Assembly: GCA_002438075.1 (NCBI GenBank)
Contig: DJSQ01000188.1
Span: 1-46,418, forward strand
Direction of reading: 5' to 3'
DNA from: Clostridiales bacterium UBA6330
Lineage (GTDB): Bacteria; Bacillota; Clostridia; Oscillospirales; CAG-272
DNA length: 46,418 bases
In this document: positions 20,746 to 45,400 of the stretch, one piece after another
Layout of the letters: each line of letters begins with the position of its first letter
Numbering within the stretch: the stretch's first letter is position 1
Translations under genes and position numbers: made by a program
Notes under the pieces: model-generated
Databases searched by the model: none
What the model was told of the DNA's origin: nothing
The model's input: only the letters and a program-made list of their open reading frames with translations

Positions 20746-21114
20746 ATGACAGAGAGAAACTTCAACCGAAATACGGACCCGGAAATGCGCCGCCGTCTGG
20801 GGCGCTTTTTTCAGTCGGGGAGGGTCAGAAAGAAGATGACGCAGGAGCAGCTGGCGGAGGCGCTGGGGATGACCAAGAAGTCCGTCAGCTTTATCGAGAA
20901 CGGAAAGACCTATCCGAGCCCCGAGAACATTTTTCGCATGACCAAGCTGTTGGACCTGTCATTGGATGAATTCGTGTTCGGCTGTACGCGAACGGGGCAG
21001 AATTCGGTCCTGCCCGAGCTGAACGACGCAATCGGAAAGCTGAATCCGGCAGAGCAGGAATGCCTTGTTCGGGTGATGTTCGAGATTTGCCGCATGGTGG
21101 AGGTCGAGGCGTAA
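20746..21114 (+). CDS. XRE family HTH regulator
   Basis: MTQEQLAEALGMTKKSVSFIENGKTYPSPENIFRMTKLLDLSLDEFVF. Confidence 0.8.
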   Translation: MTERNFNRNTDPEMRRRLGRFFQSGRVRKKMTQEQLAEALGMTKKSVSFIENGKTYPSPENIFRMTKLLDLSLDEFVFGCTRTGQNSVLPELNDAIGKLNPAEQECLVRVMFEICRMVEVEA

Positions 21115-21117
21115 AAA

Positions 21118-21720
21118 ATGGTTGGCGTGACGTATGAGGAAGCGTTCCGCGCCTTCCATCGGGAGATCGTTCGTTACTGCCTGTCCGAATTTCCGAACGA
21201 CTGCTATTGCGCGGAGGACCTTGCAAGCGAATGCTTCATGCTGCTCTATCGGAAATGGGACACCCTGCAAAGCCACGCACCGACCACGGTGCGGGTCTGG
21301 CTCTTCCGCACCGCGCGCAACAAGGTGCTGGACTGCAAAAAGAAGAAGCGTCTGCAAACGGTCTCCCTTGACGACGAGAGCGGGCGCGCCCGACTGGAGC
21401 GTGAGGCGGCGCACCTGCTCCACCACCTCGACGAGCGGGAGGAGACCGAGCGGTATCGGCATTACCTGACCGAGATACGGAACGCGCTGACCGAGCTCGA
21501 ATGGCGGCTGTTTGATCTGGTTGTGAATCAGGAGCAACCGTTTCGGCAGGTCTCCGAGCGCTTGGGGACCACGGAAGCGGCGGCGAAAATGCGCTGGCAC
21601 CGTCTGCGGGCAAAGCTGAAGGACTTCCTGTCGGGGCTGTTCGCGCAAATGGGCTTCCTGACGGACGGACATCGGAAGTCGCCTGCGGAAAAGCGGCAGA
21701 CCTCGTCGGGGCACAGCTGA
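21118..21720 (+). CDS. sigma-70 family RNA polymerase sigma factor (ECF-like, regions 2 and 4)
   Basis: Region 2: AEDLASECFMLLYRKW...VWLFRTARNKVLDCKKKK. Region 4: WRLFDLVVNQEQPFRQVSERLGTTEAAAKMRWHRLRAKLK. Confidence 0.8.
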   Translation: MVGVTYEEAFRAFHREIVRYCLSEFPNDCYCAEDLASECFMLLYRKWDTLQSHAPTTVRVWLFRTARNKVLDCKKKKRLQTVSLDDESGRARLEREAAHLLHHLDEREETERYRHYLTEIRNALTELEWRLFDLVVNQEQPFRQVSERLGTTEAAAKMRWHRLRAKLKDFLSGLFAQMGFLTDGHRKSPAEKRQTSSGHS

Positions 21721-22986: not shown

Positions 22987-23874
22987 ATGTCTTTCATTCG
23001 GAAGCTCGGGAACACGCGCGTGTCCCGCTACCTTGCGATTGCATTGTTTGCGGTCGCCTTCGCAATGGTGTACGAAATTTTCGTGTTCCCCAACAGCTTT
23101 GCGCCTGCGGGAATCAACGGTATCGTCACCATGATTCAGTACCTCTTCCGCTTCAAGGTGGGGTATCTGTCGCTGATTGTCAATATCCCGATGCTGATTG
23201 TGGCGTGCTTTGTCCTCAACCGCTCCTATGCCCTTCGGACGCTGACCTTTATCCTCGTCTTTTCCGCCTCGCTCCTCATCAGCGAACGGCTTGGGATTGC
23301 CGAATCGGGAATCGTGTTCCAAGCGGAGGACGTTGGCGGCAGACTGCTCGCGGCAATTGCGGCGGGATTCTTCAACGGGTTCCTCTACAGTATGTCGGTC
23401 CGTATGGGCGGCTCCACGGGCGGGAGCGACGTGGTGGGCGAATTCATTCACCGCGCACATCCCGAATACAATACGGTGTGGATTATCTTCACCATCAACG
23501 CGGTTGTGGCGGTGGCATCATTCTTCGTGTATAACTTCCGCTACGAGCCGGTAATCCTCTGCGTGGTCTACATTTTCGTCAACGGCAGAACCTCGGATGC
23601 CATCTTCAAGGGTAACCGCGCGGCGGCAAAATTCGAGGTCATCACCACCCAGCCCGAGCAGCTCTCGCGTGAGCTGATTACCACCCTGCACCACGGCTGT
23701 ACCGTCCTGCGCGCGGAGGGAATGTATACCCACTCCAACCGCGCCATGCTGGTCTGCGTCATCAACCGCCGTCAGGTGGTGGATTTCGAGCGTATCATCC
23801 GTAAATATGACAATACGTTCGCCTATATTTCCACCGTGAACGGCATTGTGGGAAACTTCAAAAAGATTAAATGA
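22987..23874 (+). CDS. YitT family (DUF2179) membrane protein
   Basis: FVFPNSFAPAGINGIVTMIQY, multiple TM helices, C-terminal DUF2179-like TVLRAEGMYT...MLVCVINRRQVVDFERIIRKYD. Confidence 0.85.
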   Translation: MSFIRKLGNTRVSRYLAIALFAVAFAMVYEIFVFPNSFAPAGINGIVTMIQYLFRFKVGYLSLIVNIPMLIVACFVLNRSYALRTLTFILVFSASLLISERLGIAESGIVFQAEDVGGRLLAAIAAGFFNGFLYSMSVRMGGSTGGSDVVGEFIHRAHPEYNTVWIIFTINAVVAVASFFVYNFRYEPVILCVVYIFVNGRTSDAIFKGNRAAAKFEVITTQPEQLSRELITTLHHGCTVLRAEGMYTHSNRAMLVCVINRRQVVDFERIIRKYDNTFAYISTVNGIVGNFKKIK

Positions 23875-23940: not shown

Positions 23941-23969
23941 TTGACAAATGCGGGAATCTGTGCTATAAT
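23941..23969 (+). promoter_or_regulatory. consensus sigma-70 promoter of the SipW/TasA-type locus
   Basis: TTGACA (23941-23946), 17 nt, TATAAT (23964-23969), with a TGc extended -10. Confidence 0.65.
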
Positions 23970-24029
23970 ACAAATGTTGTAATAGTAGGGAAAAATCGTT
24001 GGATAGATTCGCCAAAGGAGGCAGGACCC

Positions 24030-24140
24030 ATGCGTTGCTTCGGTAACGATTTGTCAAAACAGCCTGTACGGATTTGCGCACACCCCGTGTACGGGGCTTT
24101 TGGCTGTGCCTGCGAGGAGCGGACCGACACGCCTGCATAA
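24030..24140 (+). CDS. possible leader micro-ORF, 36 aa, Cys-rich: MRCFGNDLSKQPVRICAHPVYGAFGCACEERTDTPA
   Basis: AAAGGAGG lies 8 nt upstream of the ATG. The ORF sits in the ~275-nt leader between the promoter and the first gene. It may instead be non-coding structured RNA. Confidence 0.25.
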   Translation: MRCFGNDLSKQPVRICAHPVYGAFGCACEERTDTPA

Positions 24141-24244
24141 GGAAAACGCGCTTTGCGCCGTGCGAAAAAGCATGGCGCGGGGCGCGTGTTTGCGTACTTT
24201 GAACGGGAAAAGCGGCTTTTGCTTTTCCGAAAGGAGTTGACGGG

Positions 24245-24913
24245 ATGGAAAAAGAGATACATACGGGTGCGGGACGCGGCTTTCTGCGATTCCTCACGGG
24301 CATCCTGTGGTTTGTAATTGCGGTGCTGATGATCAGCAGTGTGCTCCTGATTGCGGAGTCCCTGCTGTTCGGCGACAGGATTCCCGGGAACATCAACTGG
24401 AAGCCTGCGGCGGCAAAGACGGGCGTCATGGAGCCGACCGTGAAAAAGGGCGATCTGGTGATTCTGCGCCCCGTGGGAGAGGAGGACCTGACCGTTGGAA
24501 CGGTGGTCTCCTATCATACCGACGGCGGCTATGTGCTGGGGCGGATTACCGAGCGGCACGGCGCGGTTTCGCTGGTCAAGGGAGATGCGGAAACCGAGAG
24601 CGTGGCGGTGGAGAACACCGACATTCGCGGGGTCTGGCGCGGCACGAGAATTCCGATGGTCGGCTACTTCGTCGCGGGTGTGCAGAGCGCCCCGGGGGTT
24701 GTGCTGATGGTTGTGGCGGTGGTCCTGCTGTACATGATTGTGATGGCAATCATTCGCAGAAGCTACGCGGACGAGGCGGTTGTGTATTTCGGCTCCGCAG
24801 AGGCGGAGGGATTGGCGTTTGTGCTTTGCAGTCTGTCGCTGTTCGGCGGAGGTCTGTATCTCAGACATATTATCCGCAAGGGCGGCGAGACGGAAAGGAG
24901 CGGTAGACGGTGA
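24245..24913 (+). CDS. SipW/ER-type signal peptidase I homologue lacking the catalytic Ser and His (pseudo-peptidase)
   Basis: AKTGVMEPTVKKGDLVILRP compared with the consensus SGSMEP..GD; GGYVLGRITER compared with the consensus VTHRI; TM helices at both ends. Confidence 0.75.
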   Translation: MEKEIHTGAGRGFLRFLTGILWFVIAVLMISSVLLIAESLLFGDRIPGNINWKPAAAKTGVMEPTVKKGDLVILRPVGEEDLTVGTVVSYHTDGGYVLGRITERHGAVSLVKGDAETESVAVENTDIRGVWRGTRIPMVGYFVAGVQSAPGVVLMVVAVVLLYMIVMAIIRRSYADEAVVYFGSAEAEGLAFVLCSLSLFGGGLYLRHIIRKGGETERSGRR

Positions 24914-25452
24914 CACTTCTCAAAAAATATAAAATCATCATTGCGGTGCTGGCGGCACTGCTGTCGGTGTCGTTGGTCCTGCTTGCCGTGCAGACGGTCA
25001 AACGGCTGCGCGCGGCATCGGGCGAGGTGACGGTGCGCAACAACAGCATCGGAGCCGTTGAGGAAAACTGGGAATTCGGCGGCGCGGGTCTGCTCCCCGG
25101 GGACAGCGAGAGCAAGACCTACACGGTGCGGCTCTCCCATAAGGAGGACCTGATGCTGGCGTTCTCGGTGCAGGTCTCGGACGATGCAAAGGGACTGGCG
25201 GACGCACTCATCATCAAGGTTGAGGATGCGGAAAACGGGCAGGTTCTTTGCGAGGAAAAGCTGAGCCGTGCGGCGGAAACCGTGTATTCGGAAAAGATTC
25301 TGTTCAACGGAAGCAAGGAACGGAAAATCCCGTATAAAATTACGGTAACGGTGGATGAAGCGGCGGATGGCGCGGCGCAGGATGCTTCACTGAAGCTGAG
25401 CTTCCGCTGGTCGGTCCTCTCCGCCGAATCAAAGGAGGGTGACGCAAAATGA
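24910..25452 (+). CDS. membrane-anchored/secreted beta-rich protein, weak TasA/TapA-like resemblance
   Basis: The GTG start overlaps the upstream TGA. N-terminal hydrophobic helix IIIAVLAALLSVSLVLLAV. Ends ...ASLKLSFRWSV. Confidence 0.5.
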   Translation: MTLLKKYKIIIAVLAALLSVSLVLLAVQTVKRLRAASGEVTVRNNSIGAVEENWEFGGAGLLPGDSESKTYTVRLSHKEDLMLAFSVQVSDDAKGLADALIIKVEDAENGQVLCEEKLSRAAETVYSEKILFNGSKERKIPYKITVTVDEAADGAAQDASLKLSFRWSVLSAESKEGDAK

Positions 25453-26003
25453 CCGAACAAGCGGCAAAGGGCGTAATCAGACGGCTGACGGTCAGCATCG
25501 TTGCAATCGTTCTGCTGACGGCGGCGCTTACCGTGACCACCTTCATTCTGGTTGTTTCCACGGTGTCAACCGACGGGCATCTGTTCTCCACGGGCAGTGT
25601 CCGCCTGAACCTGAATGACGGAAAGCCGATCGTCTCGGCGGGCGAATGCGTGTTTGCACCCGGGCAGAGCATGGAAAAGAGCTTTACGGTGGAGAATCTG
25701 GGCACCTGCGCGGTGTGGTATAAGATTTACTTCAGCAACGTCAGCGGCGCAATGGCGAACGCAGTGGAGGTGGAAATCCGCGACGGGGACAAGGTACTTG
25801 CAAGCGGGAAGCTGAACGACCTGAACGAGGAGAACACGGAGGCGTTTGCGGACGCGCTGGAAATCGGCGGCGAAAAAACGCTGACGGTTTGGTTTCACTT
25901 TGACGAGGACGCGGGTGACGAATTGCAGAATGCCCTGCTGAGCTTTGATTTCAGCGCGCGTGCAACGCAGGTCCCGAATAACCCCGACAAAAAGTTTCAT
26001 TAA
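25449..26003 (+). CDS. TasA/CalY (camelysin, peptidase M73-like) family protein
   Basis: N-terminal helix, then TDGHLFSTGSVRLNLNDG, FAPGQSMEKSFTVENLGT and C-terminal LLSFDFSARATQ. Confidence 0.6.
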   Translation: MTEQAAKGVIRRLTVSIVAIVLLTAALTVTTFILVVSTVSTDGHLFSTGSVRLNLNDGKPIVSAGECVFAPGQSMEKSFTVENLGTCAVWYKIYFSNVSGAMANAVEVEIRDGDKVLASGKLNDLNEENTEAFADALEIGGEKTLTVWFHFDEDAGDELQNALLSFDFSARATQVPNNPDKKFH

Positions 26004-26012
26004 GGTGGAGAA

Positions 26013-26879
26013 TTGAGCATGGATGAAGAAGTAAAAACGCAAACGGTTCCGAAGCGGGAAAAGGCCCTGAATCTGATGAAGAATATTGTGACATGGGTCG
26101 TGGTCGCCGTGGCGGTTTTCATGATGATCTTTACCATCATTTCCGCAACCACGCTGAATCGGAACGACCGCAGTCTGTTCGGGCTGAAGATGTATAAGGT
26201 CCTGTCCGACTCCATGAAGGCAACCGATTTTGCGGCGGGCGACTTGGTGTTTGTCAAGGCGGTGGACCCCGCAACGCTGAAGGAGGGGGACATCGTTTCC
26301 TACATCTCACAGAATACCGAGAACTTCGGCGAGACCGTGACGCATAAAATCCGCAGACTGACCACCGATGCGGAGGGTAACGCGGGCTTTGTGACCTACG
26401 GTACCACGACCGATACCGACGACGAAAAGGTGGTTACCTACCCGTTTGTGGTGGGAAAATACCAATTCCACATCCCGAAGCTTGGCTATTTCTTCGACTT
26501 CCTCAAAACCACCCCCGGCTATATCGTCTGTATCCTAGTCCCGTTCCTGCTCCTGATTCTTTCGCAGGGACTGACGAGCGTGCGGCTGTTCAAGCAGTAT
26601 AAGTCCGAGCAGAACGCGGCGCTGGAGGAGGAAAAAGCCAAGCTCGCCGCCGAAAAAGAGGAAACGCAGAAGATGATGGCGGAGCTGATGGCGATGAAGG
26701 CGCAAATGGAAGCGCAGAACGCACAGACGGCACAACCTGCTCAGCCTGCACAACCCGCACAGACGGCGGAGCCCGCAGAAGCGGAGCAGCCGACCACCGA
26801 GCCCGCAGAGGTGGCATCGGAAGAGCCGACAGCGCCTGCGGAGCCCGCAGAGACGGCAGAGACGCAACGGGCGGAGTAA
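26013..26879 (+). CDS. sipW: signal peptidase I, SipW (ER/archaeal) type, with ~100-aa coiled-coil/PAQ-PAE C-terminal tail
   Basis: KVLSDSMKATDFAAGDLVFV (Ser box), GETVTHKIRRL (His box), TM helices N- and C-terminal to the catalytic domain. Confidence 0.85.
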   Translation: MSMDEEVKTQTVPKREKALNLMKNIVTWVVVAVAVFMMIFTIISATTLNRNDRSLFGLKMYKVLSDSMKATDFAAGDLVFVKAVDPATLKEGDIVSYISQNTENFGETVTHKIRRLTTDAEGNAGFVTYGTTTDTDDEKVVTYPFVVGKYQFHIPKLGYFFDFLKTTPGYIVCILVPFLLLILSQGLTSVRLFKQYKSEQNAALEEEKAKLAAEKEETQKMMAELMAMKAQMEAQNAQTAQPAQPAQPAQTAEPAEAEQPTTEPAEVASEEPTAPAEPAETAETQRAE

Positions 26880-27191: not shown

Positions 27192-28895
27192 ATGAAAACC
27201 ATCAACACCAAAAAGGCGTTGATCGCAAGCCTGCTTTCGCTGGTGCTTTGCGTATCAATGCTCGTCGGCTCCACCTTCGCGTGGTTCACCGACACCGCAA
27301 CAACTTCGGTGAATACGATTCAAGCGGGTAAATTGCAGGTTGATATTGTGGATGGAGCGGGAGCTTCTCTGAAGGGCAAGTCCATGAGCTTTGTCGATAA
27401 GGACGGCTCTGCGGACATTCTTTGGGAGCCGGGTGCGACCTTCCGCACAATCGGCTTCAAGGTTAAGAACATTGGCAACCTTTCCTTCAAGTATAAGATG
27501 GTGCTCAACGGCGTGGACGGAAACAATGAGCTGCTGGATGTCATCACCTTCAAGGTCGTGAAGGCGGACGGCACGACGGTTGATCTCTCCACCTTTGAAG
27601 GACATCTCAAAAAGGACGATGTGTCCGACCTGCTCTACATCGAAGGACATATGGACGAGACCGCAGGCAACAAATATCAGGATATGAAGCTGGAGGGCAT
27701 CGGAATCACCGTTTACGCAACGCAGGATACGGTGGAGAACGACAGCAACGGCAATACATATGACGATGGCGCGGCGTATACCGAGGTGATTGACGCAGGT
27801 AAGACGTTTACAGGAAAGCAGACGCTGGATGTCGGCGTCACCGCTACCGATGCGAATGCAATTGCAGTGAAGGCAATTGGCGCGGATGCAGATGTTACCA
27901 TCACGGATGGTATTTATGATGGCGGCAATGGCGGAAACAATATCTGCGTTGCGGCGGCTAACGGAGCAAAGGTAACCATCAAGGGCGGAACCTTTACCGT
28001 TGGCGGTGATGCAGACGGCTACGGAAACTCGGTTGTCTATTCAGAGAACGGTAATATCGTAATTGAGGGTGGGTTCTTCTATACGAATTACAGCTACGGC
28101 GGCAGATACTATGTGCTGAATCAGAGCAACAGCAAGCCCGGAACGATTACGGTTAAAGGCGGTACGTTTGTAAACTATGACCCTTCCAAGGGCGATGATA
28201 ATCTGGGCGGCAATTTTGTGGCAGAGGGCTATATGGTTGTTGCGCAGAAGCAGGCAAACGGTGATATTTGGTATACCGTTGTAGAATCTTCAAAATTGCA
28301 AGAAGTGCTTAAAGAAGGCGGTGTTGTTACGGTTTTTACCGATATTGAAACGGGGAACAGTGCCGACACTTCGGACGCTCGCGTTATTATCAAGAATCCG
28401 ACTACACTGAATCTGAACGCAAAAATCATTTCCCCTGATGATATGGGGAACAATAGCACAAACTTTGTTGCGCTGATTGTAGATGCTGACACTACCATCA
28501 ATGCAGACGAAAACGGCGGAATCAATACGGGCACAAATGGCGGCTATGCTCTCAATGTGAGAAATGGTGCAACCCTGACCATCAATGGCGGTTCTTACTA
28601 CGGCGGTGGTACAACGGTTCAGGTTCAGAAGGGAACGCTGATTATCAACGGCGGAACCTTTGCTTGCGAGCCGTTTGGCGCTCCTTATTATACAAACTTC
28701 CTGCTGAACTGCGTCGATGCTGCTTACAAGAATGGCACGGCTAAGATTATTGTTAAGGGTGGCACATTTGTCAACTTTGACCCGTCCAACAATTCGGCAG
28801 AGGGCGCAGGAACCAACTTTGTGGCAGACGGCTACAAGGTGACCTCTGAAACGAAAGATAACGGTGAAGTTTGGTATACCGTTGTTCCGGAATAA
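27192..28895 (+). CDS. TasA-family N-terminal domain with SipW-type signal peptide, fused to two ~150-aa beta-helix-like repeats (567 aa)
   Basis: LVGSTFAWFTDTATT; ...AGNKYQDMKLEGIGITVYATQ; the repeats end KGGTFVNYDPS..NFVAEGYMV..NGDIWYTVV and KGGTFVNFDPS..NFVADGYKV..NGEVWYTVV. Confidence 0.85.
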   Translation: MKTINTKKALIASLLSLVLCVSMLVGSTFAWFTDTATTSVNTIQAGKLQVDIVDGAGASLKGKSMSFVDKDGSADILWEPGATFRTIGFKVKNIGNLSFKYKMVLNGVDGNNELLDVITFKVVKADGTTVDLSTFEGHLKKDDVSDLLYIEGHMDETAGNKYQDMKLEGIGITVYATQDTVENDSNGNTYDDGAAYTEVIDAGKTFTGKQTLDVGVTATDANAIAVKAIGADADVTITDGIYDGGNGGNNICVAAANGAKVTIKGGTFTVGGDADGYGNSVVYSENGNIVIEGGFFYTNYSYGGRYYVLNQSNSKPGTITVKGGTFVNYDPSKGDDNLGGNFVAEGYMVVAQKQANGDIWYTVVESSKLQEVLKEGGVVTVFTDIETGNSADTSDARVIIKNPTTLNLNAKIISPDDMGNNSTNFVALIVDADTTINADENGGINTGTNGGYALNVRNGATLTINGGSYYGGGTTVQVQKGTLIINGGTFACEPFGAPYYTNFLLNCVDAAYKNGTAKIIVKGGTFVNFDPSNNSAEGAGTNFVADGYKVTSETKDNGEVWYTVVPE

Positions 28896-28908
28896 AATCA
28901 ATCAGTCT

Positions 28909-28972
28909 CTCCATCCATCGGGTGGAGGGGCTACCGAAGCGGATAAGCGTTGGTTTATCCGTTTCGGTAGCC
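28909..28972 (+). other. intercistronic double stem-loop, copy 2
   Basis: CTCCATCC-atc-GGGTGGAG, then GGCTACCGAAGCGGATAAGC-gttg-GTTTATCCGTTTCGGTAGCC (G.U pairs only on the plus-strand RNA). Confidence 0.6.
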
Positions 28973-28985
28973 GAATGGCAAAATC

Positions 28986-29072
28986 ATGAGAGGAGGAGAA
29001 GTCTTTTATGAAAAACAGACAATCGGCAATCTGTATAACGGGGGGGGGGGTATCATCTTTCTGAATTGGTGA
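28986..29072 (+). CDS. leader micro-ORF containing the G11 tract: MRGGEVFYEKQTIGNLYNGGGGIIFLNW
   Basis: This frame preserves IG(N/K)LY(N/H)GGG relative to copy 1, with synonymous TTA/CTG and TAC/TAT changes. An alternative ATG at 29008 (with GAGGAGGAG upstream) gives MKNRQSAICITGGGVSSF. Confidence 0.3.
   Translation: MRGGEVFYEKQTIGNLYNGGGGIIFLNW
29040..29050. repeat. homopolymeric G11 tract
   Basis: Counted directly: tataac-ggggggggggg-tatc. Confidence 0.95.
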
Positions 29073-29182
29073 TATCAACCAATCAAGACGGGAAAAAGAC
29101 GAAATAGCGGAAGGTCTCCTTGCGTCGGCGCGGGATGCCTTTCTGACCGTGCGTCGACAATTACAGAAAAGGAGACGAAACG

Positions 29183-31138
29183 ATGAAAACCAACAACACC
29201 AAAAAAGCGTTGATTGCAAGCCTGCTTTCGCTGGTCCTCTGCGTATCAATGCTCGTCGGCTCCACCTTCGCGTGGTTTACCGACACCGCAACAACGGCAG
29301 TGAATACCATTCAGGCGGGCAATCTGAAAATTGACATTGTAAACGAAGCAGGCGTTTCTTTGAAGGGCTCCGACATGAGCTTTGTCAACAAGGATGGCTC
29401 CGCTGATATCCTCTGGGAGCCGGGCGCGACCTTCAGAACCCCGGGCTTCAAGGTCAAGAACATTGGCAACCTTGCGCTCAAGTACAAAATGCTCCTGAAC
29501 GGCGTAACGGGTGACAACGAATTGCTGAAGGTAATCAAATTCTCGGTCGTGGACGAAAACGGCGCGGTTGTGAATTTGGATAGCTATGAGGCGGTCCTCA
29601 AAAAGGATGAAACGAGCGGCGTTCTCTACATCGAAGGTCATATGGCAGAGGATGCGGGCAATACCTATCAGGGCTTAAAGCTGAACGGTCTCGGAATCAC
29701 GGTTTATGCAACGCAGTATGCTGATGAATCCGATAGCAACGGCAGTGATTATGACAAGGATGCAACCTACCCGATTGTTGCGGTTGCAACGGTGACGGTG
29801 GACGAATCCGGAAAAACAACCGAGAAAAGCGAGTTGACCTCCACGGACAGCTCGACAAAGGTTACGGTTCCCGCAGGCGCGAAGGTCGACGATACGAAGC
29901 TGGTCCTGACCATCCATGAAGCCGCAGACCCCGAAAACTTTACGGTAAAAGCAACCGATGTAAGCCAAACTCTGGAAGTAAAGATGGTAGGTCTTGCAGA
30001 GGACAACACGGAGTTGATTCGCGTTGTAATGAATGTTGGCAAGAGTTTGAATGGATTCGCGCTCTATCATAACGGCACCGCAATGACAAAGAAGGATACT
30101 GTGGCAGACCTTACCGCAGATCAGGACTATTATTATGACAGTGCCAAGGGTGAGGTAACGATGTTGACCTCGCATTTCTCTCCGTTTACCTATACCTATG
30201 CAAAGGGAGATTGGAACGATCAGCTCACGGACGATGCCGATTTTGAAACGCCCGTTGATACGGAAAAGAAGGTTGTGACAATTGCTTCCGCCTCGGAACT
30301 GGCTCTGTTTGCAAAGCAGATTACCGATAAGGGAAAGAACTACTCCGGCTATACCGTGAACATCGTTGCCGATATTGATTTGAGTGCCGGACTTTGGAAG
30401 CCGATCAATGGTTGGGGTAAAATGGATCACATTGTGATTAACGGTAACGGGCATACCATCAAAAATATGATTGTTCGGGATTGTATCAATCCGAATAGCG
30501 GTGGATACGGTGCAGGCTTTATTGGTCAGACGAGCGGCTCAATTACTATTGAGAATCTCACTTTTGATTCTGCGAATGTTGCATTTCCCCATGCTGAATG
30601 GTATAATGGCTATGTTGGAAATGTCGGTGGCGTTGTGATGGGCTATACCTACGGAACGACGCTCTTTGAGAATGTCAGTGTGGTTAATAGCACCATTCAG
30701 GGCTACGGTAAAATCGGATGTCTGTTGGGCATGGGTGCAGACCCCGGCGTAAAGGTTACATTCAGGGATTGCGTATCGAAGAATAATACCATTCACGCCG
30801 TTTATAACATGGGTGGACTTGCAGGCAATATTCAACGTGGAAACGGTGTTGACAATACAACGGTGGAAAACTGCACAGTTGAAAATATTGTAGTCGAATA
30901 TGATGCGAATGAAAAATATGCAGATTTGGTTAACGTGAAGGTGACCTACAGCACCAATGATGTAACTGAGGATTCCACCGTGGAAAAAATTGTAAGCGGA
31001 AAATATTGGATTTGTCAAGGTTACTATTGGGGCGGTTATGCGGATTACTATGTTTCTTACGGTGACAGTGCATATGATGCACCTGCGGAAGGGCATAGTA
31101 TGAAACTTGCCAATGGCGAGTATGATGTAAATAAATAA
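29183..31138 (+). CDS. TasA-family N-terminal domain with SipW-type signal peptide, fused to an Ig-like middle region and a GLUG-like beta-helix module (651 aa)
   Basis: LVGSTFAWFTDTATT; ...AGNTYQGLKLNGLGITVYATQ. The C-terminal ASASELALFAKQI...YTVNIVADIDLSAGLWKPI...GNGHTIKNM...GAGFIG...GGVVMG...GGLAG resembles ORF 487..1998. Confidence 0.85.
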   Translation: MKTNNTKKALIASLLSLVLCVSMLVGSTFAWFTDTATTAVNTIQAGNLKIDIVNEAGVSLKGSDMSFVNKDGSADILWEPGATFRTPGFKVKNIGNLALKYKMLLNGVTGDNELLKVIKFSVVDENGAVVNLDSYEAVLKKDETSGVLYIEGHMAEDAGNTYQGLKLNGLGITVYATQYADESDSNGSDYDKDATYPIVAVATVTVDESGKTTEKSELTSTDSSTKVTVPAGAKVDDTKLVLTIHEAADPENFTVKATDVSQTLEVKMVGLAEDNTELIRVVMNVGKSLNGFALYHNGTAMTKKDTVADLTADQDYYYDSAKGEVTMLTSHFSPFTYTYAKGDWNDQLTDDADFETPVDTEKKVVTIASASELALFAKQITDKGKNYSGYTVNIVADIDLSAGLWKPINGWGKMDHIVINGNGHTIKNMIVRDCINPNSGGYGAGFIGQTSGSITIENLTFDSANVAFPHAEWYNGYVGNVGGVVMGYTYGTTLFENVSVVNSTIQGYGKIGCLLGMGADPGVKVTFRDCVSKNNTIHAVYNMGGLAGNIQRGNGVDNTTVENCTVENIVVEYDANEKYADLVNVKVTYSTNDVTEDSTVEKIVSGKYWICQGYYWGGYADYYVSYGDSAYDAPAEGHSMKLANGEYDVNK

Positions 31139-31242: not shown

Positions 31243-31734
31243 ATGAATTTTATGATGCAAGCAAAGGCAGAGGGTAATTTGACCAAAATTCTGCTTCCGT
31301 CCGTGCTGTCTATCCTGCTCTGTCTGGTGTTGCTGTGCGGCATGACATGGGCGTGGTTTACCTCCACGCAATCCGCCCCCGCAGCTACCATTATGTCTGC
31401 TACCTACAACATTGATATTGTTGCGAAAAACGGGGAGACCGAGTTAAGCGGGCAGAACGGCACATATACCTTGATGGCAGGCGTTGAGTATACTGTCACG
31501 CTCACTGCCTCGGGGACTGCCAAAACGGGATATTGCAAGATGACGCTCCCGAACGGCACTTCTCTTTTTACTGACCAAATAGGGATAGGCGAAGAGAATG
31601 CTTTTTCCTTTAAGCTGATGTTGGAGGCGGGCGGTGAAGTGCGCTTTTCTCCGCAATGGGGAACCTGTACACAAGATGATATAGCGGATATTAAGCGTGA
31701 CAATACAATTGTAAACGGTTCAATTCAAAAATAA
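31243..31734 (+). CDS. small TasA/camelysin-like protein with SipW-type signal peptide (163 aa)
   Basis: LLCGMTWAWFTSTQSAP; beta-rich ~120-aa mature part; RBS AAAGGAG upstream. Confidence 0.7.
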   Translation: MNFMMQAKAEGNLTKILLPSVLSILLCLVLLCGMTWAWFTSTQSAPAATIMSATYNIDIVAKNGETELSGQNGTYTLMAGVEYTVTLTASGTAKTGYCKMTLPNGTSLFTDQIGIGEENAFSFKLMLEAGGEVRFSPQWGTCTQDDIADIKRDNTIVNGSIQK

Positions 31735-31775
31735 ACGGAACGCATGACCTTTTCGGTCATGCGTTCCGTTTATTT
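31733..31775. terminator. bidirectional intrinsic terminator closing the locus
   Basis: AAACGGAACGCATGACC-ttttc-GGTCATGCGTTCCGTTT, a perfect 17-bp stem flanked by A/T runs. It overlaps the 3' end of 31770..32057(-). Confidence 0.85.
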
Positions 31776-32057
31776 CTCGTTCCGTTTGTCGCGGAGCTGT
31801 TTTTCCAGATTCGCAATCTGCTCGCGCATCAGCGTAATGGCTTTGATATACTCCGCCAGCGCCTCTGCGCCGTCCTCGTCCTCGGACGTAAAGCTGAGGT
31901 AGGCAATCTCCCCGAATTCCTCATACGCCGAGCGCAGACGCATTTTTTCGGTCCGAAGCTGTAGCCGCAAAACCGCAAGATCGGTCGCGTTTCCGAGCTT
32001 CTCCGCCGCCGCATCGGTAATCTGCCGCGTTTGTTCCTGAAATTCCTTCCATGTCAT
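31770..32057 (-). CDS. hypothetical coiled-coil protein, 95 aa
   Basis: RBS CAGGAGGAA; charged heptad-like sequence (LRLQLRTEKMRLRSAYEEF...REQIANLEKQLRDKRNEK). Confidence 0.6.
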   Translation of the reverse strand: MTWKEFQEQTRQITDAAAEKLGNATDLAVLRLQLRTEKMRLRSAYEEFGEIAYLSFTSEDEDGAEALAEYIKAITLMREQIANLEKQLRDKRNEK

Positions 32058-32089
32058 GCGCGTTTCCTCCTGTTTGGTCCTCTCACTCT

Positions 32090-32118
32090 ATTATATACCG
32101 AACAGGCGCGAAAATCAA
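32090..32118 (-). promoter_or_regulatory. sigma-70-type promoter for 31770..32057(-)
   Basis: On the minus strand: TTGATT, 17 nt, TATAAT. Confidence 0.5.
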
Positions 32119-32199
32119 GCATTTTTCGGAAATTTTCCTCCTTCACGCATGAAAGTCGGCGCGCGGGGACAAACTGACGGAAAAAAAGGGGGGATTTCC

Positions 32200-32658
32200 A
32201 TGAATCATCAGTCAATGGACCGCGAAACCTACCGCCGCTTTGCCGACGCACACGCCCCGCACTCGCCGATGCTCAAAAATTGCTTCCGCGCCTTCTGGGT
32301 CGGCGGGATGATTTGCGTTCTCGGGCAGCTGCTCCGCACCTTTTGGAGCGAATGCGTCCACCTGAACGCCGCCGACAGCGCGACCATGACCTCCGTAACG
32401 CTGATTTTCATTGCCGCGCTGCTCAGCGGAATTGGTGTATTCGACAAAATTGCAAAATATGCGGGCGCAGGGACGCTGGTCCCCATCACGGGCTTTGCAA
32501 ACGCCGTGGTCTCTCCCGCCATCGACAGCCACGCTGAGGGCTTGGTGCTCGGAGTGGGCGCAAAGATTTTTACCGTTGCGGGTCCCGTCCTGCTTTACGG
32601 CACGCTTGCGGGCGGAATCTGGGGCGTGATTTTGTTTGTTGTCAGGATGTCCATTTAA
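32200..32658 (+). CDS. spoVAC: stage V sporulation protein AC
   Basis: KNCFRAFWVGGMICVLGQ...LIFIAALLSGIGVFDKIAKYAGAGTLVPITGFANAVVSPAID..AEGLVLGVG is collinear with B. subtilis SpoVAC (WNCVKAFLVGGLICAIGQ...AGSAVPVTGFANSV...SEGLVLGV). Confidence 0.85.
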   Translation: MNHQSMDRETYRRFADAHAPHSPMLKNCFRAFWVGGMICVLGQLLRTFWSECVHLNAADSATMTSVTLIFIAALLSGIGVFDKIAKYAGAGTLVPITGFANAVVSPAIDSHAEGLVLGVGAKIFTVAGPVLLYGTLAGGIWGVILFVVRMSI

Positions 32659-32757: not shown

Positions 32758-33594
32758 GTGGCAGTATATTTCGATTTGCACTCCCACCTGCTGTTCGGTG
32801 TGGATGATGGGGCAAAAACCAAAGAAGAAATGTTTGCCATGCTGGATATGGCATACGCGGACGGAACCAGAGCCATTTGCCTGACCCCGCACTTTTCTCC
32901 CTATCTGTTCGGCGATACATACGATAGCTCGCAGGCGGCGTTTGAGGTCCTGCGGGAGTACGCGGAAAAGACCTATCCCAAGCTGGCGCTGTTCCTCGGT
33001 CACGAGCTGGGCTACTACGGCGGCTGTATCGAGGCGCTTGGAAGGGGCAGGTGCCGCACCGTTGCGGGAAGCCGCTATGTGCTGGTGGATTTCCCCGAGG
33101 ATGTAGAATTTTTTCAGATTGAAAGCGCCGTAAAGCACCTGCGCAGTGCGGGCTACCGCCCGATACTGGCGCACGCCGAGCGGTACCGTTGCCTTGCCTC
33201 CCACATGACGTGGATTGAGGACTTTCACGATAGCGGCGGGGTGGTTCAGGTGAACGCCGCCGACGCGGTTGGATGCTGGGGCAGATCGGCAAAGGCGCTG
33301 TGGAAAAGGCTTGTCAAAAGCCGATTGGTGGATATCGTTTCCTCGGACGGTCATAATCTGACCTCCAGACAGCCGAAAATTTCGGTTTGTATCGATTTGC
33401 TTTCCCGTTATTGCGATGCGGAGACCGTGCGCGCGCTGACATGGGAGAATGCTTGGCGGGTGGTTCGGGACGAGCCGCTCGGCACTGTGACAAAGGACGA
33501 CACTCCGGAGCGGATTCCGGTAGCTACATCAGAAAGGATATGGGGTCATGGAAGAAACGAGAAGCATGGAAGAAACGAAAAACAGGGAAATTGA
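32758..33594 (+). CDS. CpsB/YwqE-type PHP-family protein-tyrosine phosphatase
   Basis: VYFDLHSHLLFGVDDGAKT, TPHF, ILAHAERY, VQVNA, SSDGHNL metal-ligand motifs. GTG start. Confidence 0.85.
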   Translation: MAVYFDLHSHLLFGVDDGAKTKEEMFAMLDMAYADGTRAICLTPHFSPYLFGDTYDSSQAAFEVLREYAEKTYPKLALFLGHELGYYGGCIEALGRGRCRTVAGSRYVLVDFPEDVEFFQIESAVKHLRSAGYRPILAHAERYRCLASHMTWIEDFHDSGGVVQVNAADAVGCWGRSAKALWKRLVKSRLVDIVSSDGHNLTSRQPKISVCIDLLSRYCDAETVRALTWENAWRVVRDEPLGTVTKDDTPERIPVATSERIWGHGRNEKHGRNEKQGN

Positions 33595-34306
33595 AATTCG
33601 GTTCGGCGACTTTGTAAAGGTCTTTTGCCGATGCTGGTGGGTGCTGCTGTTGGTTGGCGCACTGGTTTGCGGCGGCGTGTTCGGCGTGCTGAAGCTGACG
33701 CACGTTCCGCTTTATACCGCCACGGCAAAGGTTTACATCATTCGGACCTCAGGGTCCATGCAGGCGGCGCAGGTCTCCATTTCCAACGCACTTGTAAGCG
33801 ATTTTATAGAGTCGGTCACCATGGGCAACGTTCTGACCCAGACCCGCGAGGAGCTGGGCATGAATTCGCTCTCCAATAAGGAGCTGTCGAGTATGGTGAA
33901 GGTCAGCAACACCGAGGGCTCGCGTCTGATTACGCTGTCGGTGACGGCAAGAAGCGCGAAGGATGCGGTGGATTTGGTTGATTCGCTGGCGCGGAACAGC
34001 GTGGAATACTTCAACGATAATCTGGTGAAGGAAGAGTATTCGCAGTATGTCGATAAGCTCGACACGGAACATCCCGAGAGCTGTGTGGTGGTTTCCAACC
34101 CGATTTCCAAATCGAAGATTCTGCTTGTCGGAATTGCGGCAGTCCTGCTGGCGTATCTGGTATTCTTCATCATTTATGTGACGGATGACAAGATCAACAC
34201 CGCGGAGGATTTGGACCAATATCTCGGCATCAATCTGCTGGGGCAGATTCCTTACCGTCATACACCCCGTGAAAAGACCGCGGCGGCGAAAGGAGACAAG
34301 GCATGA
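33548..34306 (+). CDS. Wzz/CpsC/YwqC-type chain-length determinant / tyrosine-kinase transmembrane modulator
   Basis: Two TM helices (WWVLLLVGALVCGGVFGVL; ILLVGIAAVLLAYLVFFIIYV) flank a ~150-aa extracytoplasmic loop. The start is ambiguous (33548 or 33566). Confidence 0.8.
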   Translation: MEETRSMEETKNREIEIRFGDFVKVFCRCWWVLLLVGALVCGGVFGVLKLTHVPLYTATAKVYIIRTSGSMQAAQVSISNALVSDFIESVTMGNVLTQTREELGMNSLSNKELSSMVKVSNTEGSRLITLSVTARSAKDAVDLVDSLARNSVEYFNDNLVKEEYSQYVDKLDTEHPESCVVVSNPISKSKILLVGIAAVLLAYLVFFIIYVTDDKINTAEDLDQYLGINLLGQIPYRHTPREKTAAAKGDKA

Positions 34307-34992
34307 GGACCATTGAGCTGATTCTGGAGGATAACAAGGATTACGGCACGCGCGAGGCGTTCAACACCCTGCGGACCAATATTCTGTTCAGCGGACGGGA
34401 TGTCAAAACCATCCTGATTACCAGTAGTGTTGCGGGCGAGGGAAAGAGCACGATCGCATTTGAAACGGCGGTCGGTCTTGCACGCACCGGCAAAAAGGTC
34501 CTGCTGATTGACGCGGACCTGCGCAAATCCGCATATGCAAGTCGTTATACAAAGGAAACGGGACTGACGGGCTTGAGCCAGTACCTCTCGGGTCAGCTGG
34601 AGCTGGACGGGGTGCTGTTTGCCACGCAGATTCCCACGCTGAACGTCATCTTCTCGGGACCCTTCCCGCCGAACCCGACCGAATTGGTTGGCTCCTCCGC
34701 CTTCGGAGAGCTACTGAACGCTGAGCGGGAGCACTATGACTACATCCTGATTGATACCCCGCCGCTCGGGTTGGTGATTGACGCGGCAGTGATGGCAACG
34801 GCGTGCGACGGCGCAGTGCTTGTGGTCGGCGCGGGAACGGTCAGCTATCACACGGCACAGCGTGTAACCGAACAGCTGAAAAAGAGCGGCTGCCGCATCC
34901 TCGGCGCGGTCCTGAACCGCAACCGCAGAGGGAAGCACAGCAAGAGCAAGTATTACACATCCTACTACGGAAAATACGCGGAAAACCAATAA
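34303..34992 (+). CDS. CpsD/CapB/YwqD-type BY-kinase (protein-tyrosine kinase)
   Basis: Walker A SSVAGEGKST, LLIDADLRK, Walker B YILIDTPP, C-terminal Tyr cluster KYYTSYYGKY. Confidence 0.9.
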   Translation: MRTIELILEDNKDYGTREAFNTLRTNILFSGRDVKTILITSSVAGEGKSTIAFETAVGLARTGKKVLLIDADLRKSAYASRYTKETGLTGLSQYLSGQLELDGVLFATQIPTLNVIFSGPFPPNPTELVGSSAFGELLNAEREHYDYILIDTPPLGLVIDAAVMATACDGAVLVVGAGTVSYHTAQRVTEQLKKSGCRILGAVLNRNRRGKHSKSKYYTSYYGKYAENQ

Positions 34993-42401: not shown

Positions 42402-45400
42402 ATGAAAAACAGGAGAAGATGTTTGGTCGGTATTTTGTGTGCGGTGGCGGCATTGCTTTGCGTGCTGGGGCTGTCCGCGTGCAAAAAGAAAGGACACGTG
42501 CACGAGTGGGGCGAATGGGAGGTTATAAAGGAACCGACCTGCTCCGAGGAAGGCAAGCGGATGCGCACCTGCTCGGGCTGTACCGAGGCAGAGACGGAAG
42601 CGATTGAGAAAATCGCGCACACCTACGATGTGGAGCGCATTTCGGACGAGGCGCTGAAAAGCGCGGCAACCTGCACGGGTGCGGCGGTCTATTATAAGTC
42701 CTGCGCCTGCGGTGCGGTCAGCACGAGCGAGGACGACACGTTTACATACGGTGAGGCTCTTGCGCACACCTACGACAAAGAAGTTGTATCTGATAAAACG
42801 CTGAAAACAGTGGCAATCTGCACGGGTGCGGCGGTCTATTATAAGTCCTGCGCCTGCGGTGCGGTCAGCACGAGTGAGGATGACACGTTTACATACGGTG
42901 AGCGTGCGATGCACCAATTCGACAAAGGGGTCTGCACGGTTTGCGGTCATGTTGGGTGCGACCACAAGACCTTGCACACCAAGACGCTGGACCTGCACGA
43001 GCTGGGGCTGTGTGCGTCGGTGTTTACCTACAGAATCTGCGACTGCGGGACCGTTGTGGAAACGGACGATGACTTCCTTGACAATCTGAACTGCTCCATC
43101 GACAATGAAGCTTGGAATGCGGCATTCCCCGAAAGCGAAGCCGAAAAAGGCGAGGTCCACGGCACGGTAACCTGTGAGAAATGCGGGCTGAATGTTGAAA
43201 TCACCATGCAGTTCACCGAGGATGGATGCCTGTTCCGCTCGCGCTATGTCATCACGCTGAAAAAGGACGACAAGGTTTTGCTTGACCATGCCGTGTCAAT
43301 CTACGAGAACCACGACCACTTTGAGGTGCGCGCGGAAATTCCGCTTCCCTCTGCGGACGGTTTTTGCGGCGGAACGCTGGCGGTGCTGAAATGCAAGTAC
43401 TGCGGAGAGATTACAAAGAAGCTCGCGCTCAAGCCGACCTGCAAGTTTGATTTCGTGCACGGATTGACCAATACCGAGGAGACCGATGCAAACGGCGTGA
43501 AGCACACGATTGCCCGCGGCGTTTGCCCCGATTGCGGACTGACCAAGGAGTTTGACGCTTGGGTCGAAAAGGACGGTTGCGATGAGGTTTCCTTCACGGC
43601 GGAAAGAATCTACCGTGGGGACAAGATGCTTCTGTCAATGATAGACGAAGATTTGCAGAAGTCTCATAACTTTGTCCCGACCTACGAGGCACTCGGTGAA
43701 GGCAGCTGCTATGAGGACGGCATGAAGACAACCTATCGGTGCACGACCTGCAACCTGTCGGTATATTCCTATGAGTATCAACATGCCTCGGTGACCGAAG
43801 TTATCAAGATCAAAGAGCTCGGCGGTTGCGATACACAGATATCTGTGTGGCATTGCATGGCGTGTGGGGAGGTTATTTCTTTCAGTCCGGAATGGGACGT
43901 GCGGCAGAACAATTGCCAAATGGAGGAGACCTCTCAGACCTACACCAAGGACGGTGTGGAGCACACGGTCACAACCAACACCTGCTCGGAGTGCGGGCTA
44001 CAGATTATTGTGGACGCATGGGAGATTCTGCACGGCAAAAACGGCGGATGCGGCTATACGGATTATGAATCGTACCGTGTCATTTACGGTGAGCAGACGC
44101 TGATTTCGTATCAGGGTACGGTTGATGACGGAATCAGGCATGATTGGGACGAGGAGAACGCCATTTACGAATGCGACCCCGACATGGCGTGCGAGGACGG
44201 TTACTACAACGTAGTGCTGACCTGCAAACGGTGCGGTGAAAAGCAAACAATGATGCTGTATGGGCATGACAAGGACGATTTTGGAATCGAACTGGACGAT
44301 TACGGATGCGGCGGATATGTTGGCGGATGGCTTTGCAGGAGATGCGGCGATCTTTATTCCGACATTTGGAATTTTGATTGTGAGAAAAACGGGACGCTTG
44401 TCTGGAGCGAAACGCCTGTGGAAACAACCGACAAGAACGGGCTTGTTCACAAGACGTGGACCGGAACCTGTAGTGCGTGCGGCTTGCAGTTCATTCGGGA
44501 AGAGTGGGCAGAGAAAGAGGACGCATTCGGATGCAGAACGAAATACTATGTGGCTTATCAAATCCTCAAGGATGACGAGGTGATTCTCAAATTCCACTCG
44601 GATGAGGTGGTGGATAAGCACAACGATGATGAGCACATGAAGACCGTGTATGACCGCGAGGGCGCTTGCGAGGACGGCTATTACAAAACCTCCTATTGCC
44701 CGACGTGCGGACTTGCAAGTGCCGATCATATGGAAGGACATAAGGAGGCGTATCGGTCGATTGACGCAAAGGAGCTGGGCTTCTGTCATGGCTCTTTCAA
44801 CGAGAGGTATTGTGTTGTCTGCGGAGAAATCCAATATCAACAAGATCAATTGGAGTGCGACTTTGTCGAAGACGAAGGCTCGGACGGCAAGTCCAAAACC
44901 TGCTCGGTGTGCGGCGCGAAGGTTCTGTACGTTGACAAGGACGAGGAGATCGACCCCTGCCATTTGATCGTGATTTCCGAGGATCACTATATCAATAAAA
45001 ACGGTGAAGATGTCTATGTCATTGAGTATCAAAGCCGCTTCACAACGCACAAGGAGGAGTATGATTTTGAGTTTTATGGAACCTCCTGCTCCGAAGGCTA
45101 TCGGGTGCGTAAGGTTTGCAGTGTGTGCGGTGAGACGACCAAAGATTGGGTGGAGAAGCCTGACCACCGTCTGTTCGACCACGAAGCGTATGAAGATTTG
45201 TTCGTTTGGGACAATGTAGAGGGCGTATGCGAGAGCCATGTCGGGGCAGTCAAAATTAAAGGATGCGCTTGTGGCTTCTTGTTCTATTTCGAGCAGGGTG
45301 ACTTGGTATATGACCAAGCTACCAAGACCTACGGTTGCTCGGAATGCGCGCTGAAGCTCGTGCAAACGGTGACCGAAGACACGGACGGATGCAAGAAGAC

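Follow-up and report, generated by a model that had tools for sequence, protein, structure and literature searches.

A SipW homologue without its catalytic triad, conserved at the head of a TasA-type fibre operon in gut Clostridia

Why would an operon for matrix fibres that encodes a live SipW signal peptidase open with a second SipW homologue whose catalytic residues are gone? The question is raised by a stretch of 46,418 nucleotides, contig DJSQ01000188.1 of Clostridiales bacterium UBA6330 (assembly GCA_002438075.1), referred to here as the window. Its open reading frame (ORF) at 24245-24913, ORF1, lies ahead of ORF2 to ORF7 on the plus strand, in a locus that has the marks of a SipW/TasA-type matrix-fibre operon, namely a canonical SipW (ORF4) and neighbours with SipW-dependent-type signal peptides and TasA/camelysin-like domains. 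An initial annotation, made from the sequence alone, had proposed that ORF1 is a dead-enzyme SipW paralogue retained as the first cistron. Our comparisons of profiles, folds and related loci indicate that the gene is conserved and selected and is not decaying. They favour a binding or scaffold role within a membrane module and do not decide between the holding chaperone, the assembly platform and the regulator that the annotation had put forward as possible roles.

The ORF1 sequence reads ...AAKTGVMEPTVKKGDLVILRP...GTVVSY...YVLGRI...VKGD and that of ORF4 ...KVLSDSMKATDFAAGDLVFV...ETVTHKI, and every motif on which the annotation had built was recovered in the two proteins. Against the NCBIfam SipW equivalog NF046067, ORF1 residues 17-171 match model positions 4-166 of 189 with an E-value of 7.6e-10 and 38.7 bits, under the cutoff of 190; against TIGR02228 the E-value is 6.4e-9 and the score 35.9 bits, under the curated cutoff of 51.85. 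A word-indexed protein search with ORF1 returned 6 close orthologues, and the wider clade was reached by an exhaustive profile search of 1.84 billion representatives, which gave 2220 relatives; the best 150 of these 2220 were aligned. When the 14-sequence alignment of the ORF1 clade (A2) was compared by hhalign with a 44-sequence alignment of canonical SipWs (A3), the two matched with a probability of 99.9% and an E-value of 1.3e-35 over 172 columns. The homology claim rests on this profile alignment. In the search of PDB sequences phmmer places ORF1 KTGVMEP on LSGSMEP of human SEC11A and SEC11C, a marginal match (SEC11 E-values 0.12-0.33) that was used for column register only.

The fold points the same way. 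The AlphaFold2 (AF2) model of ORF1, built from an 81-sequence alignment, has a mean predicted local distance difference test score (pLDDT) of 82, with ~87-95 in the ectodomain, and in it a helix at the N-terminus (9-41) is followed by a beta-rich domain (52-136) and then by two C-terminal helices (149-175 and 185-221). The first three Foldseek matches of this model in the PDB are SEC11C (7p2q), Streptococcus pyogenes SipA (4n31) and SEC11A (7p2p), followed by LexA, UmuD and bacterial signal peptidase I. In the hydropathy profile two segments are strong, the centres of their 19-residue windows falling at residues 19-35 and 147-166, and a third is weaker. The SipW-like topology that had been read from the sequence is thereby borne out by hydropathy and AF2 helices alike: N- and C-terminal transmembrane helices surround an extracytoplasmic domain, as in S26B peptidases. 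A conserved LIAES...GDR(I/M)PG motif runs from the outer end of the N-terminal helix into the start of the ectodomain. With both sequence and fold homology over the catalytic domain, ORF1 is a true S26B/SipW homologue, as had been annotated.

The catalytic columns of ORF1 were then read from an alignment register on which four methods agree: phmmer against SEC11A, MAFFT (157 sequences), hhalign and hmmalign, the residues in the hmmalign columns being read by motif anchoring. The profile alignment that had been proposed as a check of the annotation places Val61 in the column of the nucleophile Ser and Gly99 in that of the general-base His, exactly as suspected. The codons of these two residues are at least 2 nucleotide changes away from Ser and His codons, and a sequencing slip is therefore not the cause. 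The annotation had counted two replaced catalytic residues. That count holds for Ser and His and falls one short, since the triad Asp is missing as well. Its column (equivalent to SEC11A D122 and to ORF4 D137, at His+26 and six residues past the Asp of the GD box) carries Asp in canonical sequences, and for ORF1 it is a gap in hhalign and hmmalign and variable in MAFFT. The structural Asp of the GD box (D114) and the Arg of the HR box (R100) are both kept in ORF1 and invariant across the clade. By these alignments none of the three triad residues is left in ORF1, neither nucleophile Ser nor general-base His nor triad Asp. The weight of such losses can be judged from characterised enzymes: in Bacillus subtilis SipW the Ser47/His87/Asp106 triad is essential and a peptidase-independent role resides in the C-terminus (review, PMC8767453), which agrees with the background that the annotation had given, and in eukaryotic SPC18/21 the residues S56, H96, D116 and D122 are cited as essential (PMC6850559).

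Could ORF1 nevertheless be a peptidase, working with unconventional residues or with Ser in those orthologues that have one? Across the clade the Ser column holds V, A, S, T, N, L, D or M, and in the six closest orthologues it reads V, V, A, S, S and A. Hence the loss of the nucleophile, which is true of ORF1 with its Val61, does not extend to every orthologue: P0003, P0004, P0012 and the copy in locus L008 carry Ser there. D70 and D114 are moreover invariant. However, 16 of 17 clade representatives have Gly in the His column and the remaining one has Ala (with Gly throughout the six closest orthologues), no triad Asp is present, the nucleophile column accepts eight residue types, among them Val, Leu, Met and Asp, and D70 and D114 are just as conserved in canonical enzymes, where neither is a nucleophile. 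Counted over 14 clade sequences with identity down to 25%, the invariant residues are P47, G48, P54, M62, P64, G69, D70, R100, D114, G133 and G140, and G85, V87, Y90, G99, G129, W131, R135, I136 and P137 are nearly invariant. An invariant Ser, Thr, Cys, His or Lys was sought in the clade alignment and none was found, on which ground an alternative active site elsewhere in ORF1 is rejected; a rigorous alignment likewise gave no Ser/His pair at another place in the catalytic columns. Judged from this alignment, none of the invariant clade residues is able to serve as nucleophile or general base, and a surviving peptidase activity of ORF1 appears very improbable. What the protein retains are the motifs that shape the groove: xxMxP, GD, the R100-D114 pair and the IP..G box.

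The degenerate protein is not peculiar to the window. Close orthologues with 70-94% identity occur in gut metagenomes and metagenome-assembled genomes (MAGs), the nearest named genome being 'Eubacterium sp. CAG:180' (L003). Two clusters at 90% identity hold 303 and 136 member sequences from metagenomes, with no name in any source, and the whole clade comprises ~12 clusters at 50% identity from uncultured gut Clostridia. In the ranking of the exhaustive search, P0007-P0017 (E-values from 1e-54 to ~1e-17) share xxMxP, (L/I)GR(I/V) in place of THR and a (K/R)GD box, with LAR in P0016 and KAD in P0014 and P0017 as exceptions, and canonical S...H...D sequences start at P0018. The most distant clade proteins, P0010 (L010) and P0014 (L009), have ~29% identity to ORF1.

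The gene neighbourhood was next read in further loci, which were drawn, like the hit list, from a search favouring ORF1-like sequences: clade loci L001-L004 and L006-L011 (L010 and L011 being duplicates, and L005 truncated) and, with a degenerate SipW from outside the clade, L012-L014. The survey of homologous loci that had been suggested gives a uniform answer, as every locus read has retained the degenerate copy as the opening gene of a conserved four-gene core. In all clade loci (10/10) the order is pseudo-SipW (~220 amino acids), an ORF2-like gene (~180), an ORF3-like gene (184) and a SipW (265-335), the core genes being translationally coupled, with one to several large TasA-like genes downstream. 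Each locus has exactly two S26B genes, the first degenerate and the second with Ser, His and triad Asp, on one strand and 1-3 genes apart. In L012-L014 a degenerate SipW also comes first (Ser/His columns V/G in P0056, E/G in P0148 and S/E in P0036), a SipW of the ordinary SGSM...THR...GD kind follows one or two genes downstream, and proteins with ...GGTFAKYTS and ...GTMAKYTS N-termini adjoin this canonical SipW. Because these three loci repeat the arrangement, the pairing of a dead with a live SipW is broader than the ORF1 clade.

One locus stands apart by its label. L008 (CAVKJG010000070.1, 5.1 kb) is assigned to a Sphaerochaetaceae bacterium and carries a Clostridia-type cassette with ORF3 and ORF4 identities of 62-76%; this is probably a mis-binned MAG, and possibly a case of horizontal transfer.

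Conservation of position could still accompany loss of function, ORF1 being then a decaying duplicate carried along by the operon. Pairwise Nei-Gojobori ratios of nonsynonymous to synonymous substitution (dN/dS) against four orthologous loci are 0.21-0.23 for ORF1, 0.11-0.13 for ORF4 and 0.07-0.19 for ORF2 and ORF3. ORF1 at 0.22 against 0.07-0.19 for its neighbours is what decay would lead one to expect, as are the identities in the distant loci L006-L008, which are 36-45% for ORF1, ~40% for ORF2, 54-63% for ORF3 and 68-76% for ORF4. However, values of 0.21-0.23 are well below 1 and indicate purifying selection, with roughly half the stringency that acts on the live enzyme. In 13/13 loci read the frame is uninterrupted; length, topology, a Shine-Dalgarno sequence of its own and the first position are all kept; and 11 invariant and 9 nearly invariant residues persist in the clade alignment. 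A functionless relic of this kind is scarcely credible. The triad loss, the lack of invariant alternative residues, the dN/dS of ~0.22 and the kept context together uphold the earlier proposal of a dead-enzyme paralogue that has been retained.

Has catalysis been lost more than once? In a census of 156 aligned sequences longer than 120 amino acids (database matches plus the pair from the window), both Ser and His are present in 125 and both are absent in 18, Ser stands alone in 9, and 4 combine His with a Thr in the Ser column. For the degenerate SipWs that fall outside the clade, the nearest neighbours are canonical enzymes, which suggests several independent losses of catalysis among S26B proteins, although alignments this short cannot prove it and the hit list is biased towards ORF1-like sequences. 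Four S26B homologues with Thr for the nucleophile Ser (P0050, P0065, P0140 and P0151) keep the His and, except for P0140, the triad Asp; Thr may serve them as the nucleophile of a signal peptidase, or they may represent another route of inactivation.

The constant company of a live paralogue raises the possibility that ORF1 is an obligate non-catalytic partner of ORF4, the two forming an S26B heterodimer in which ORF1 stabilises, positions or tunes the enzyme. ORF4 passes TIGR02228 (71 bits against the cutoff of 51.85) and aligns with SEC11 as VLSDSMKA/VLSGSMEP, VTHKI/IVHRV and YGTTTDTDD/KGDNNAVDD. The annotation had called it intact. This is right in that S67, H111 and D137 are kept, and needs qualifying in that ORF4 is itself a variant, with T131 in place of the GD Asp and HK...YGT where canonical enzymes have HR...KGD. 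In the core clade the partner SipW is always of this SDSMKA/THK/YGT type, without the HR-box Arg and the GD-box Asp, that is, without the R-D pair that ORF1 keeps. This complementarity speaks for a partnership, as do the constant count of one degenerate and one canonical S26B gene, same strand and 1-3 genes apart, and the translational coupling of the genes. Enzyme/pseudo-enzyme pairs, and the paired S26A subunits Imp1/Imp2 of mitochondria, offer parallels. On the other side, HK..G(T/I/V) SipWs are also found among other database representatives, the partner in L012-L014 is an ordinary HR...GD enzyme, and the S26B enzymes of bacteria and archaea are regarded as acting alone. Based on these comparisons a partnership with ORF4 is possible, though not what we would expect first, and it is compatible with a role in binding.

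ORF4 shows further features of its own. The site that marks its subtype lies at 26343-26405 (H111-K112 ... G130-T131) and reads HK/HQ ... G-T/I/V, the pseudo-SipW keeping the R-D pair. HR-box Arg and KGD-box Asp are also lost together in seven other SipWs (P0033, P0066, P0077, P0079, P0102, P0126 and P0146), and because the two vanish together they are suggested to be a structural pair that is lost as a unit and is dispensable. The C-terminus of ORF4 (26600-26879) is a cytoplasmic extension of ~100 amino acids, with a predicted coiled-coil and after it a tail of low complexity in which Pro, Ala, Gln and Glu abound, and the length of its orthologues varies from 265 to 335 amino acids. As its start, ATG 26019 is likelier than TTG 26013 because of the Shine-Dalgarno spacing.

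Alternatively, ORF1 could be a regulator or signal transducer, with an ectodomain that would sense subunit or fibre load and with C-terminal helices and a basic tail that would pass the signal on to the cytoplasm. The model for this is B. subtilis SipW, in which the C-terminal 20 residues activate matrix genes apart from peptidase activity (PMC8767453), and whose C-terminus thereby has a part in the formation of surface biofilms. After its second transmembrane helix ORF1 does have a weaker hydrophobic helix (~amino acids 185-206) and a basic tail (LYLRHIIRKGGETER), which are conserved within its close orthologues. Across the clade, however, no part of the protein is conserved less than the C-terminal region, with a mean pairwise identity of 0.23 where the ectodomain has 0.45, and P0014, P0015 and P0017 are without it, for which reason a regulatory role is less supported. 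Furthermore, no regulator is consistently linked to these loci, the helix-turn-helix (HTH)/sigma gene pair of the window recurring in L002 and not in L001. Signalling by ORF1 is improbable.

If ORF1 binds, its clients may be found among its operon partners. By hhalign the families of ORF2 and ORF3 are homologues (95.8%, E-value 6.7e-9), both align with the N-terminal TasA-like domains of ORF5-7, and ORF3 matches PF12389, TasA and TafE weakly. ORF5 and ORF6, which match Pfam Peptidase_M73 (the camelysin/TasA family), have the TasA-type cleavage motif GSTFA|WFTD. ORF3 and its orthologues have TTF(I/V/T)LV instead, with I, V or T at the -1 Ala position, which lengthens the hydrophobic stretch, and no TasA-type cleavage motif was found in ORF2 when it was aligned with ORF3 and ORF5-7. 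The transmembrane segment exceeds the ectodomain in mean pairwise identity, with 0.71 against 0.61 for ORF3 and 0.61 against 0.52 for ORF2, and in these alignments such conservation appears unusual for signal peptides that are removed. From their sequences, the hydrophobic N-termini of ORF3 (25449-25620) and ORF2 (24910-25040) look like retained signal anchors that are not cleaved. Past the anchor, F46, T48, V51, N54, L55, N56 and G58 are invariant in the ORF3 family, and by comparison with the published TasA/BsaA models this stretch may be the N-terminal donor strand of TasA-type subunits. The AF2 model of ORF3, from a window-only alignment, has a pLDDT of 60 and shows an all-beta sandwich behind a long N-terminal helix. 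Generic jelly-roll and CUB folds make up most of its Foldseek matches; TasA (5of1) stands second and has the best coverage among the top matches, so that this low-confidence model lends weak support to a kinship with TasA; a profile search of the ORF3 family against PDB sequences gave no meaningful match.

The large subunits differ in build. ORF5 and ORF6 (27192-31138) and their counterparts in L001-L010 have a TasA-like N-terminal domain followed by big variable C-terminal domains, with a weak Pectate_lyase_5 match in ORF6. Both the number of large subunits and their C-terminal domains differ between otherwise syntenic loci, and these domains are probably beta-helical or adhesive, judging by sequence.

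In light of these results, it is rather probable that ORF1 functions in fibre biogenesis as a non-catalytic accessory and does so by binding. By analogy with streptococcal SipA and pili, it would most likely hold or bind fibre subunits without cutting them. The four core genes would be co-translated, so that ORF1, ORF2, ORF3 and ORF4 form a four-protein membrane module in which the ORF1 groove binds signal peptides or anchors of fibre subunits. ORF1 would hold the degenerate, apparently uncleavable anchors of ORF3 and/or ORF2 at the membrane, or alternatively hold pre-subunits there transiently; the held ORF3/ORF2 would become the base or nucleus for donor-strand polymerisation, and ORF4 would remove the canonical SipW-type signal peptides of ORF5-ORF7. 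Binding without cleavage, the identity of the clients and the anchoring role are all three what we infer from the comparisons above. That ORF1 clamps the ORF3/ORF2 anchor in particular is a tentative proposal. A still wider one, which we regard as speculative and rather unlikely in its entirety, would make the dead/live SipW pairing a recurrent, independent design in TasA-superfamily loci of Firmicutes, in which the dead copy clamps the uncleavable anchor of a base subunit (ORF3 and/or ORF2), provides a sortase-independent anchor and nucleation site for donor-strand-exchange fibres and sets the balance of attached and released fibre.

The notion of ORF1 as a binding or holding protein fits two published ideas, namely the dead signal peptidase with an intact cleft and membrane-tethered polymerisation. 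The S. pyogenes SipA is a signal-peptidase homologue without Ser and Lys that keeps its peptide-binding cleft and is indispensable for assembling the pili, and it was proposed to bind a component in an assembly-favouring conformation (PMC4049620). For Clostridium perfringens BsaA, subunits are modelled to polymerise while held in the membrane, with SipW cleavage later (PMC11580942). Several points weigh against our reading. ORF1 evolves ~2x faster than ORF4, a sign of weaker constraint. The conservation excess of the ORF3 transmembrane segment is modest, and cleavage of ORF3 could still occur some residues downstream, after STVS for instance. The loci sampled number 13, from a search biased to ORF1-like sequences. 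Lastly, the SipA analogy crosses both subfamilies (S26A and S26B) and assembly chemistries (sortase and donor strand).

The layout of the operon is given in Table 1. That ORF1 is its first cistron, as annotated, agrees with a promoter-like site and a Shine-Dalgarno sequence (AGGAG, 8 nucleotides upstream of its ATG start): an upstream YitT-family gene ends at 23874, and the 370-nucleotide gap to ORF1 houses the promoter-like site, which a leader of ~275 nucleotides separates from ORF1. ORF1/ORF2 and ORF2/ORF3 overlap by 4 nucleotides each, the spacing from ORF3 to ORF4 is 9-15 nucleotides, and spacers of ~100-300 nucleotides lie between ORF5, ORF6 and ORF7.

Table 1. Features of the pseudo-SipW operon, in window coordinates; residues of ORF4 are numbered from TTG 26013
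Feature	Coordinates	Strand	Evidence
Promoter-like site, TTGACA-17-TATAAT with upstream TG (extended -10, sigma-70 type)	23941..23969	+	12/12 consensus matches
ORF1, pseudo-SipW, 222 amino acids, S26B fold, without Ser, His and triad Asp; first cistron	24245..24913	+	sequence, profile and fold comparison
ORF1 N-terminal transmembrane helix, ~amino acids 14-41	24284..24367	+	AF2, hydropathy, clade alignment
ORF1 Val61 (codon GTC), nucleophile-Ser column (SGSMEP to TGVMEP; equivalent to ORF4 S67)	24425..24427	+	phmmer, MAFFT, hhalign, hmmalign
ORF1 Gly99 (codon GGG), general-base His column (THR to LGR; equivalent to ORF4 H111)	24539..24541	+	MAFFT, hhalign, hmmalign
ORF1 Asp114 (codon GAT), kept KGD box (equivalent to SEC11A D116)	24584..24586	+	clade alignment, hhalign, hmmalign
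ORF1 second transmembrane helix, ~amino acids 141-172	24665..24760	+	AF2, hydropathy
ORF2, 180 amino acids, hydrophobic N-terminus, ORF3 homologue	24910..25452	+	GTG start overlaps ORF1 stop (GTGA)
ORF3, 184 amino acids, TasA/camelysin-like	25449..26003	+	ATG overlaps ORF2 stop (ATGA)
ORF4, canonical SipW, Ser67/His111/Asp137	26013..26879	+	profile match, column read-out
ORF5, 567 amino acids, SipW-dependent-type signal peptide (GSTFAWFTD), TasA-like N-terminal domain, large C-terminal domain	27192..28895	+	TIGR04088, E-value 1.7e-7; PF12389
ORF6, 651 amino acids, ORF5 paralogue, SipW-type signal peptide, weak pectate-lyase-like adhesive domain match	29183..31138	+	TIGR04088, E-value 2e-6
ORF7, 163 amino acids, small TasA-like protein, weaker SipW-type signal peptide	31243..31734	+	family match, alignment
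Terminator-like hairpin, 20-bp stem, directly after ORF7	31730..31774	reported minus strand	hairpin scan

Rfam gave zero family matches over the whole window and the 5' leader of ORF1, and no riboswitch is therefore claimed for the leader. Within it (23941-24244) lies a GC-rich hairpin plus U-run at 24083-24105, and it could act on the fibre operon as an attenuator or regulatory leader of an uncharacterised kind. At the other end, the perfect hairpin after ORF7 could also serve as a terminator for plus-strand transcription. Beyond it come SpoVAC (32056-32658) and a trio of CpsB phosphatase, Wzz-like and CpsD-like tyrosine-kinase genes (32758-34992), exopolysaccharide regulators that are found in the same arrangement in L002 and are consistent with an extracellular-matrix neighbourhood. 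An XRE-type HTH gene with an adjoining sigma-70 (extracytoplasmic function-like) gene, the pair mentioned above, lies ~2.5 kb upstream of the operon (20746-21720), its tie to the fibre locus being uncertain. An ORF of 1305 amino acids at 42402-46319 has no Pfam match at E <= 0.001.

Fibres of the TasA superfamily are by now known from Bacteria and Archaea alike, and their nucleation, timing and cell retention are unsettled; TapA, CapP and DUF5305 are recent or tentative answers to the question of assembly and retention. An S26B pseudo-enzyme that heads the operon is a concrete candidate for an assembly or anchoring factor in abundant uncultured gut Clostridia, and it would extend the idea of a dead signal peptidase as fibre chaperone, so far resting on SipA/LepA, to another peptidase lineage and another polymerisation chemistry. 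A pseudo-signal-peptidase as an accessory of fibre assembly is thus already known from streptococci, and it is the S26B/TasA-locus version which appears to be new; no description of a non-catalytic SipW paralogue was found in the full-text literature, most subscription journals lying outside its coverage. For annotation, the pseudo-SipWs are unnamed in any source and fall below the TIGR02228 cutoff, and they should not be labelled active signal peptidases.

Among known systems, SipA/LepA of S. pyogenes, the rank-2 fold match, resembles ORF1 in being a membrane-anchored S26 fold with replaced catalytic residues in a surface-fibre operon of a Gram-positive bacterium. It is however a P-type S26A protein, of the Ser-Lys dyad lineage, and serves covalent pili built by sortase, whereas ORF1 belongs to the S26B Ser-His-Asp lineage and to a TasA-like locus. 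Descent from S26A does not apply to ORF1, whose best sequence families are S26B and whose nearest relatives are of SipW type, and the window genes that were scanned against Pfam or NCBIfam include no sortase. Unlike SipA/LepA, ORF1 also has SipW-like N- and C-terminal transmembrane helices and is always paired in its operon with a live SipW paralogue.

The SipWs of B. subtilis (tapA-sipW-tasA) and C. perfringens (sipW-bsaA-bsaB-bsaC) share family, topology and kind of operon with ORF1, but they are active, triad-dependent and, as described, the single S26B gene of their operon, while ORF1 is without the triad. SEC11A and SEC11C, the best fold matches, align with ORF1 in the SGSMEP, GD and KGD boxes; SEC11A keeps S56, H96, D116 and D122, and ORF1 is without the equivalents of the Ser, the His and D122. 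SEC11 works in a multi-subunit membrane complex with non-catalytic partners, and these accessory subunits are not known to be S26 paralogues. Finally, TapA of B. subtilis, CapP/BC1280 of Bacillus cereus and the DUF5305 proteins of archaeal AbpX and Tafi loci are non-pilin accessories that stand beside TasA-like subunits and a dedicated signal peptidase, and they have been proposed to anchor, to chaperone or to assist processing. None of them is an S26 homologue or derives from a peptidase, and ORF1 has no DUF5305 match in Pfam; next to these proteins, ORF1 would be an accessory that arose from the peptidase itself.

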